IMG/VR virus record: IMGVR_UViG_3300042898_004347
Span: 32,001 to 96,000 of that record
DNA from: a virus
Direction: 5' to 3' (one strand)
Length of the DNA: 64,000 bases
Shown here: in pieces, positions 32,223 to 39,316 of the stretch
Layout of the letters: each line of letters begins with the position of its first letter
How positions within the stretch are numbered: the first letter of the stretch is position 1
Position numbers and translations under genes: made by a program
The notes under the pieces: model-generated
The model's input: the letters and a program-made list of their open reading frames with translations, nothing else
What the model was told of the DNA's origin: nothing
Database searches by the model: none

Positions 32223-32317
32223 ATAAATTTAAAAGAACGAAATTCAATTGTTTAATCCGTCCACGTTCACCGCGTAGCCCAAATCCCTTTTTGAAAAAGG
32301 ATACAGTTAAACAAAAT

Positions 32318-36149: not shown

Positions 36150-36226
36150 TGGAGCGCCAGACAGGGATCGAACCTGCATGTGACTGTTTTGCAAACAGAA
36201 GTTTAGCCTTTCAACAACACTGGCGC
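36150..36226 (-). tRNA. tRNA-Cys(GCA), divergent
   Basis: Loop TTGCAAA, U73 discriminator, CCA. Confidence 0.78.
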
Positions 36227-37830: not shown

Positions 37831-37906
37831 TGGAGCCCTCGGACGGGATCGAACCGACGACAACCAGTTTACAAAACTGGTGCTCTACCAACTGAGCTAC
37901 AAGGGC
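37831..37906 (-). tRNA. tRNA-Thr(TGT)
   Basis: Loop TTTGTAA, CCA. Confidence 0.95.
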
Positions 37907-38224
37907 GAAATTGAATCCCACCATGCACCTAGAAGCATTGCTGCTTTCACGGATGAACCCGACATTCAGTGCAGGTAGGAAAATTGGAAAGGTAACGATA
38001 GCTCAGTGTTCTGGCTGCATATCGGTGCAGACGGCATTTCGTTTTTATCTAACACTTAGACCTTAAAAGAGCCCGGCAATTTATTTAAAGACGTCCGGGG
38101 CTCGTCTATTTTTATTTGAAAAAAGAACTAATTTTACCCCTCTCAGCTTGTGCTGGTTTGGATACCCGTTATCGGACGTTTGGACTCCTTAAAGCCGGAG
38201 TCTGGCAGTGAAACTGAAAGTGAT

Positions 38225-38257
38225 AAAAAAACCTCTGAGCTTTATGGCCCAGAGGTT
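38225..38257 (-). terminator. Attenuator terminator in the tRNA-array leader
   Basis: AACCTCTGGGC-CATAAA-GCTCAGAGGTT running into a T7 tract. Confidence 0.85.
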
Positions 38258-38290
38258 AAAGATAATTTCGATTTTAGATCGACCTTATTT

Positions 38291-38383
38291 TTAACCCCTG
38301 TAACCTGTTCCGCGTACGGACCAGAACAAGCCACAGCTATGTGGATTTTGTTCTGTATCTGATTTAATCTGTACCGTAAGCAT
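38291..38383 (-). CDS. Candidate leader peptide (30 aa)
   Basis: MLTVQIKSDTEQNPHSCGLFWSVRGTGYRG*, between promoter and terminator; last codons overlap the antiterminator arm. Confidence 0.7.
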   Translation of the reverse strand: MLTVQIKSDTEQNPHSCGLFWSVRGTGYRG

Positions 38384-38401
38384 TTGAAGTGTTTGTTGAT
38401 T

Positions 38402-38445
38402 TATTTATAGGACTATCATACTTAGTTTTGGTACAAAGTAAACAA
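38402..38445 (-). promoter_or_regulatory. Tandem early (TTTACT-N17-TATGAT) and late (TATAAATA) promoters of the tRNA array
   Basis: GTTGTTTACTTTGTACCAAAACTAAGTATGATAGTCCTATAAATA. Confidence 0.8.
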
Positions 38446-38455
38446 CAAAGCGCAA

Positions 38456-39154
38456 TTAGTGCATAAAAAGATATGGTTTCCATTCCTCGCGGATACCCAT
38501 ATCCTCGGGGATTTGAACGCCGATCTGGACACGGTTCTTTGGAACCACTTCCTTACCATTAATGTCAAAATACGGGAAAATGTTGTCCTTGGCAGCATTA
38601 CAGTCGCGGCAGGCAAGAACAAGGTTGAACCCGTCATTGGTACCACCCTTTGACTTGGGATGCACGTGATCCTTGGTGGCAACGCAGAAAGGTATCTTTT
38701 TGAGGCAGTACTGACAGGTGCCCTTATAGATGCTGTAAAGACTCCGAAGTGAGGTTTGCTGACCACGACGAACAGTATGTCCGAAGTGAGTAGTGCAGAC
38801 AACGATGGTCGGAATTGCCCATTGCTTTTCTTCGCCACTGATACGGTCCGGAGCGGAACGCAGACATGGCTGGTTGTCAAAGAGTTCTATGGTGTTCTTC
38901 GACCACGAATAACCGTCATTGTCCTCACGACCGTCCCATGGAATTGTGTTACCACTCGCGTCGATACCGTGAGCCCTACCATTCATCATGTGACGCATGC
39001 ACGCACGGGCCGTGAAGAAGGCATAGGCTTGGTAGGAACCGTCGAGCACCAGTGTGGTACGCGCAGAAGCATCAACAGGAGTCAATACATTAACCTGTAA
39101 TTGATTTAACAACTGAAGTGAAGCCTTTTCGTGGTACGTTGTATTTGCGAGCAT
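38456..39154 (-). CDS. HNH endonuclease (McrA-like)
   Basis: CQYC...TKDHVHPKSKGG...NLVLACRDCNAAK; start uncertain. Confidence 0.88.
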   Translation of the reverse strand: MLANTTYHEKASLQLLNQLQVNVLTPVDASARTTLVLDGSYQAYAFFTARACMRHMMNGRAHGIDASGNTIPWDGREDNDGYSWSKNTIELFDNQPCLRSAPDRISGEEKQWAIPTIVVCTTHFGHTVRRGQQTSLRSLYSIYKGTCQYCLKKIPFCVATKDHVHPKSKGGTNDGFNLVLACRDCNAAKDNIFPYFDINGKEVVPKNRVQIGVQIPEDMGIREEWKPYLFMH

Positions 39155-39316
39155 TAGAGTAAGATTCACCGTTGAGCACTTGGCAGTGACCAGCGGTTTT
39201 GTGGTCCCAGATCATGATACCAAAGCGGTTGACCTTGGTCTCACGTGGGACAAAGTTGGGGTCGGGTAGAATACCAGACCGAATAAGACTTTGAATGATT
39301 TTATCGTTGGACATTT

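Follow-up and report, generated by a model that had tools for sequence, protein, structure and literature searches.

The tRNA array of an uncultured freshwater phage is preceded by a leader in which an antiterminator and a terminator are, as a comparison of related sequences indicates, conserved and covarying alternative structures. The comparative evidence argues well for an attenuator at this place. With moderate confidence, which we draw from sequence comparison and structure modelling, we assign the leader as a ribosome-operated, whiB7-like transcription attenuator that would head a stable-RNA operon composed of a boxA-like element and the tRNA array. Three parts of this model, namely the translation of the leader ORF, its coupling to the polymerase and the physiological signal, are what we infer. 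Little is known about the timing and dosage of tRNA-array expression in phages. If the model is true, it describes a simple feedback in which slower decoding leads to more phage tRNA as the host tRNAs decay or are attacked, and it extends ribosome-mediated attenuation from protein-coding operons to those of untranslated RNAs. At about 185 nt the switch is compact, and it can be tested outside the uncultured host.

The window that was analysed comprises 64,000 nt (bases 32001-96000) of a 140-kb IMG/VR virus record, and all features discussed here are located on its minus strand. The phage is T4-like, as it encodes a gp32-type single-strand DNA-binding protein (phrog_224, E 8.5e-115), and further T4-like genes code for baseplate wedge and tube-cap proteins, a ribonucleotide reductase and PhoH. 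A blastn search of the leader region against 50,697 phage records gave no match. In the phage collection no cultured close relative could be identified by protein search either, the identities being at most 55% for PhoH and below 40% for the ClpP-like protein.

Related loci were collected from viral and metagenome contigs, 80 of them by means of the neighbouring gene for the ClpP-like protein and more by a motif of the downstream element; the related contigs are metagenome-derived. The retrieved loci represent 30 distinct versions of the region, which we sorted into lineages according to their sequences. A leader is present in 25 of these versions: 23 can be aligned with the study phage (19 distinct sequences from eight lineages), and two belong to a diverged ninth lineage. 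The remaining five versions, from four lineages, lack the leader, and there a promoter is situated directly 5' of the downstream element. The more distant ClpP-linked tRNA arrays (L035, L037, L042 and L044) do not possess such a leader, and plain promoters or the end of a gene are found before their first tRNA. A relaxed motif search did not reveal additional leader copies.

Promoters and alternative structures of the leader

The order on the minus strand is an HNH endonuclease gene, the promoters, the leader ORF, the switch, a conserved structured element and finally the tRNA array. Early and late promoters before the ORF were already proposed in a sequence-only reading of this DNA, and both motifs could be located. 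A sigma-70-type promoter-like site (TTTACT-16 nt-TATGAT, 38415-38442) has its -35/-10 pair at the same position in the relatives, and a T4-type late promoter motif, TATAAATA, is found 18 nt before the ATG (38402-38409). Taken by itself the sigma-70-type match does not exceed chance, as 2.7 sites are expected and 2 were found, though the paired arrangement of an early-type and a late-type promoter is retained in the relatives. The late motif is over-represented on the gene strand of the genome, where 24 occurrences face 5.7 expected ones. Most of the other lineages carry [T/G]ATAAATA 5-9 nt upstream of the start codon, and in the diverged lineage (L085 and L104) the promoter has TTGACA in place of the -35 hexamer seen elsewhere.

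The HNH endonuclease gene (38456-39169) stops 13 nt short of the -35 hexamer in the study phage and in L009. The close relatives L008, L010 and L011 do not have it at the matching place, and their similarity begins just before the -35 hexamer. This gene is probably a mobile insertion.

The last codons of the leader ORF and two in-frame stop codons lie within the 5' arm of the antiterminator (38285-38300). This arm pairs with the 3' arm (38250-38265) at 15 of 16 positions, including one G-U pair and leaving one A-C mismatch, and the helix is capped by a small hairpin (38268-38282) with a covarying stem and a loop of non-conserved sequence. The 3' arm overlaps the 5' arm of an intrinsic terminator (38225-38257), which consists of a stem of 11 pairs (38257-38230), six of them G-C, with a 6-nt loop, followed by seven T. 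Both the pairing of the ORF end with a segment overlapping the terminator and the strong intrinsic terminator before the tRNA array had been noticed from the DNA of the study phage and are confirmed here, the pairing being the core of the minimum-free-energy fold. The full leader folds better than its shuffled versions (z = -5.9), and its minimum-energy fold holds the antiterminator.

The covariation was examined in alignment A1, which contains the 19 distinct leaders of the eight alignable lineages. The antiterminator and its cap comprise 21 pairs, for which 91.5% of the cells are paired and compensatory changes are found at 12 pairs. When the partner was slid by 1-3 columns as a control, only 33-47% of the cells remained paired. 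For the terminator 98% of the cells are paired, with compensatory changes at 3 of the 11 pairs. In L119 a changed base in the shared arm is matched by changes in both of its alternative partners, which is the outcome expected from selection on two mutually exclusive structures. The diverged leaders of L085 and L104 show a different pair of competing helices at the same place, and the stop codon is again located in the 5' arm.

In the eight lineages that were folded the energies range from -22 to -36 kcal/mol for the antiterminator and from -12 to -18 kcal/mol for the terminator, and the minimum-energy fold of the full leader is the antiterminator form in all eight. With about double the stability of the terminator, the antiterminator is also the first of the two to be transcribed. 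The unaided RNA should therefore read through, and the terminator should act only if the 5' arm is masked. A conserved anti-antiterminator pairing, by which the RNA itself could provide this masking, was searched for in the leaders and not found, and most of the 5' arm stays unpaired until the partner has been transcribed. An alternative pairing of the arm is seen in the clade of the study phage alone and concerns ribosomes stalled at codons 7-9.

Conserved nucleotides in loops or bulges of the switch are not found in alignment A1, which makes a ligand pocket as in riboswitches or a fixed protein site unlikely. The best Rfam match of the leader, a PyrR site, was rejected, since it reaches 23.8 bits at a threshold of 54 (E = 0.51) and no pyr genes are encoded nearby.

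The leader reading frame and its possible translation

The leader ORF of the study phage (38291-38383) has 30 codons followed by TAA, and a second in-frame TAA is found two codons on (38287-38285). The latter is the old stop, as in the clade of this phage a point change created the earlier one. Homologous leader ORFs of 23-35 codons are present in nine lineages; their homology is clear and their conservation is poor. In eight of the nine lineages the first ATG downstream of the promoter opens the ORF, and L021 offers a TTG only. In all nine the stop codon lies inside the antiterminator 5' arm. The length differences among the leader ORFs are multiples of three, and a comparison by eye of L031 with L119 revealed two 1-nt indels, six bases apart, after which the frame is restored.

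The leader peptide has no Pfam match. Within clades we counted 8 synonymous and 14 non-synonymous substitutions in the leaders, distributed as 10/3/9 over the three codon positions. The peptide thus evolves almost neutrally. A regulatory ORF would be expected to behave in this way, but such a pattern hardly proves that the ORF is coding. As few stop codons occur in any of the three leader frames, an open frame alone is weak evidence, and it is the argument from frame-keeping that carries weight. An antisense ORF of 70 codons (38150-38362, plus strand) was also considered and discarded, as it has no Pfam match and is not retained in L020.

No Shine-Dalgarno site precedes the leader ORF. We do not take this as an argument against its translation, because the genes of this genome lack the signal too: upstream of the starts G is depleted and A is enriched genome-wide, and an SD-like word is found in only 25 of the 126 long ORFs. 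Genes without Shine-Dalgarno sites together with nearly leaderless leader ORFs hint at a host which initiates without such a signal. The end of the phage tmRNA tag resembles alphaproteobacterial tags. T4 late transcripts start about 6 nt after the late promoter motif. If this rule is applied here, the late-promoter transcript would be nearly leaderless in several lineages, which counts against the ribosome model, as it would need a host capable of translating such RNAs.

According to this model, transcription would start at the overlapping early-type and late-type promoters, and the nascent RNA would bear the short ORF near its 5' end. The ORF includes a hairpin, P1 (38322-38355), which is found at the same place in every lineage with a different sequence and is possibly a polymerase pause hairpin. 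If no ribosome is present, P1 and the long antiterminator helix would form first and the polymerase would read through. A closely following ribosome at the last codons or the stop would cover the antiterminator 5' arm and free the 3' arm, which could then pair with the next segment, so that the terminator would form and the transcript would end at about 38225. Late initiation or a stall at most of the upstream codons would leave the antiterminator intact and permit read-through. As a net outcome, slow translation would lead to more RNA synthesis toward the tRNA genes.

The positions of the ribosome were modelled by masked folding with a footprint of 28 nt, which describes equilibrium folds and not kinetics. 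The terminator is predicted for an A site positioned on the stop or within the last 6-10 codons, and the antiterminator for most upstream stalls, which in the study phage means 22 of the 30 codons; this logic holds in every lineage. Only in the clade of the study phage would a stall at codons 7-9 free the 3' half of P1 to pair with the arm, for which termination is predicted. From the study phage alone it was proposed that a ribosome reaching the stop causes termination and that stalling at almost any codon allows read-through. Masked folding agrees with the first part, and the second has to be narrowed to the 22 codons.

It may be asked if a ribosome is needed at all. The switch could be real and set by an RNA-binding protein, by a small RNA or by the speed of the polymerase, which may differ between the early host enzyme and the late modified one, and the ORF would then be incidental. 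We consider this rather unlikely. The rarity of stops in every leader frame, the poor conservation of the peptide, the lineage without an ATG and the feeding of the leader by two promoter types would all agree with it, but it does not account for a stop codon within the 5' arm in nine of nine lineages nor for a frame that survives indels. Furthermore, a factor would find no conserved unpaired nucleotides to read and no conserved anti-antiterminator to stabilise. The points that speak against the ribosome model itself include, besides the TTG start in L021, the four related lineages which do without a leader.

Composition of the leader and the possible signal

The leader ORF of the study phage (38383-38291) contains 19 distinct amino acids, with Ala missing, and 27 distinct codons among its 30. 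This composition, including the codon counts for the individual amino acids, had been reported correctly in the sequence-only reading, as our recount indicates, and had led to the idea of an all-codon design. At least 19 amino acids are reached by 0.12% of the stop-free 30-codon windows of the genome in six frames and by 0.2% of the windows inside genes, and at least 27 codon types by 0.8% of the latter, figures for an unusual property that was picked after the fact. Each of the nine lineages exceeds the null mean of amino-acid diversity, by 0.2 to 2.4 SD, with a combined empirical P of 2e-4, or 2e-3 without the study phage, for which the lineages were treated as independent although they are not fully so. 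The leaders in the clade of the study phage contain 17-19 amino acids; those of the other lineages contain 14-17, each lacking 3-6, often His, Leu and Tyr. Within the clade single substitutions are enough to bring 19 amino acids down to 18 or 17, which means that diversity falls freely. Tandem codons are almost absent from the leaders.

The all-codon design is therefore weakly supported: diversity exceeds the expectation in every lineage, but the composition of 19 out of 20 amino acids is confined to the clade of the study phage. It had also been suggested to look in relatives for diverse short ORFs combined with competing hairpins, with an absence of this layout speaking against the proposal. 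A short ORF with competing hairpins is present in nine lineages. A diverse leader without codon runs appears to be a trait of the leader family and would fit a general sensor. Since there is no conserved run of a single amino acid, the signal is most likely the general translation capacity or the tRNA supply and not one amino acid.

A further-reaching version of this idea is a gauge of the whole tRNA supply. Selection would have favoured many codons, mostly those read by phage tRNAs, and a lack of almost any tRNA, its cleavage or its failure to be charged would turn the operon on, a feedback that would also answer an anticodon-nuclease defence. Codons matching phage tRNAs make up 26 of the 30 in the study phage, or 27 if the tRNA-Cys described below is counted, compared to a baseline of 70.5% (P ~0.03), and at the synonymous level the excess of such codons has z = 3.3 over eight lineages. 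This match may be compositional, given the kinship of the lineages and the A-rich 5' part of the leader, and we do not build upon it. We regard the gauge as doubtful, and the pan-codon design and its link to anticodon nucleases as speculative.

We also looked for codons that are conserved among the leaders. A CCA codon for Pro is invariant, at codons 12-16, in nine of nine lineages (38342-38340 in the study phage), and a single TGG codon for Trp follows 2-7 codons later in eight of them (38323-38321). Both codons are at or near the apex of P1, in pairing contexts that differ between the lineages. The exception is the diverged leader (L085:9100-9340 and L104:1570-1810), whose homologous ORF of 26 codons is without Trp.

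Such codons could carry a specific signal. Together with a Thr near codon 10 they might serve to sense one tRNA, or the nascent peptide might act as an arrest peptide, of which TnaC is an example. The differing structural contexts of the Pro and Trp codons would be in line with this, as would a share of Thr and Ser of 19-32% of the leader residues compared to 15% in phage genes, the array opening with tRNA-Thr and then tRNA-Ser in most relatives. However, CCA and TGG are often P1 partners or apex bases, so that a constraint at the RNA level can explain them, and the richness in Thr, Ser, Gln and Asn follows from the A/C-rich unstructured 5' part. With tandem codons nearly absent, and a Trp stall that in several lineages would mask the arm and so terminate transcription, we think it very unlikely that the leader responds to a specific codon or peptide.

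The downstream operon and comparison with known systems

Directly after the terminator follows an element of about 150 nt (38065-38219) which is conserved in every relative, leader-bearing or not, and which contains covarying helices. Its motif GTTCTTT (38128-38122) is invariant in 15 relatives and differs by one base from the core of the E. coli rrn BoxA. Further copies of this motif stand at 32238, 32820 and 31284, upstream of the tmRNA and of other RNA genes. As a boxA-like motif heading a stable-RNA operon, it would resemble the rrn-type boxA antitermination leaders with their NusB/NusE site (PMC3177189), and this likeness concerns the downstream element and not the attenuator. Should Nus-type antitermination take place at the boxA-like element, the attenuator would form the final checkpoint that the polymerase passes before becoming resistant to termination.

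Within the downstream element the segment CCCCGGACG pairs with an upstream CGNCCG...GGG. By eye an alternative partner of CCCCGGACG can be seen in a downstream GCCGGG, behind which many relatives have a T run; it is possibly a second switch or a weak terminator. In L004 (5850-6460 and 6400-6930) a promoter and GTTCTTT are located directly before an apparent tmRNA gene, judged by its 5' end. An endonuclease ORF interrupts the first tRNA-Thr gene of L004, after which an intact copy of the gene is found.

The array itself extends from 37906 down to 30176 and includes 23 tRNAs found by ARAGORN with default settings, one additional tRNA-Cys and the tmRNA. Its first gene encodes tRNA-Thr(TGT) (37831-37906). 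The tRNA-Cys(GCA) (36150-36226) was missed by the default ARAGORN search and is weak in Rfam (32 bits), and it differs very little from the tRNA-Cys that was called in L010. The study genome contains no tRNA-Lys, of which the relatives have one or two. Five late-promoter motifs are found within the array (37596, 35360, 34453, 33608 and 30942), so that the switch would gate with certainty only the conserved element and the genes at the head of the array, those for tRNA-Thr and two tRNA-Ser. A control of the whole array was originally suggested; most of its genes may escape the switch by way of the internal motifs.

Between the terminator and the conserved element there is no room for a promoter, and the leaderless relatives have theirs exactly where the leader-bearing phages go straight from the one to the other. 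That the leader is instead a separate small unit of about 160-185 nt, a small RNA or small-protein gene with its own promoter and terminator and with read-through into the tRNAs as mere leakage, is hardly probable: the compact layout from promoter to strong terminator would suit it, and attenuated leader RNAs can act in trans in other bacteria, as with rnTrpL of Sinorhizobium, but a covarying antiterminator stronger than the terminator would be pointless for a simple terminator, and the downstream element of the leader-bearing phages would be left without a promoter of its own.

Compared with known systems, the ribosome-operated attenuator proposed here shares several properties with the leader-peptide attenuators of enterobacteria, such as trpL, hisL, thrL and ilvL. 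Sequence layout and masked folding indicate a leader terminator, a mutually exclusive antiterminator sharing an arm with it and a short ORF that ends in the antiterminator, where a ribosome would favour termination. Unlike in these systems, there is no run of regulatory codons, as the commonest residues of the leader, Thr and Ser, occur at most five times and scattered, and the regulated genes are tRNAs. The upstream 1:2 pairing, which causes termination without translation, is not conserved in the phage leaders either, so that an untranslated leader should read through instead of terminate.

T-box riboswitches of Gram-positive bacteria recognise uncharged tRNA by direct binding and work without an ORF. 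The phage leader resembles them in a decision between terminator and antiterminator that would be tied to the status of tRNAs, but it has no conserved bulge or specifier loop. The Rfam search of the leader gave no match to a T-box or an amino-acid-leader family.

The closest likeness in logic is that to the whiB7 (wblC) attenuator. For whiB7 it has been shown experimentally that efficient translation of the uORF leads to a rho-independent terminator, and translation stress to an antiterminator and read-through (PMC10274678). The uORF of M. smegmatis encodes every amino acid except Cys, and its response to Trp deprivation is weaker once the only Trp codon has been taken out, so that one codon suffices for sensing (PMC10274678). 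The sequence-only reading knew of no description of such a system, which cannot be maintained, because with whiB7 a general sensor of translation stress with a diverse uORF has been published (PMC10274678). A literature search revealed no account of leader-peptide control of phage tRNA genes. A general sensor of many amino acids is hence of a known kind, and it is its use on phage tRNA genes that we did not find described.

The phage leaders and whiB7 have in common the logic of termination and read-through, which for the phage is derived from structure modelling, and a diverse uORF that varies between relatives. They are not related in sequence, and the whiB7 uORF is rich in Ala, which is missing from the leader of the study phage. 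The phage ORFs are shorter (23-35 codons) and start 0-30 nt from the 5' end of the RNA. While whiB7 controls the gene of a bacterial transcription factor in Actinobacteria, the leader described here would control untranslated RNA genes of a phage. In our modelling the phage leader would work like whiB7 and is yet not a member of that family.
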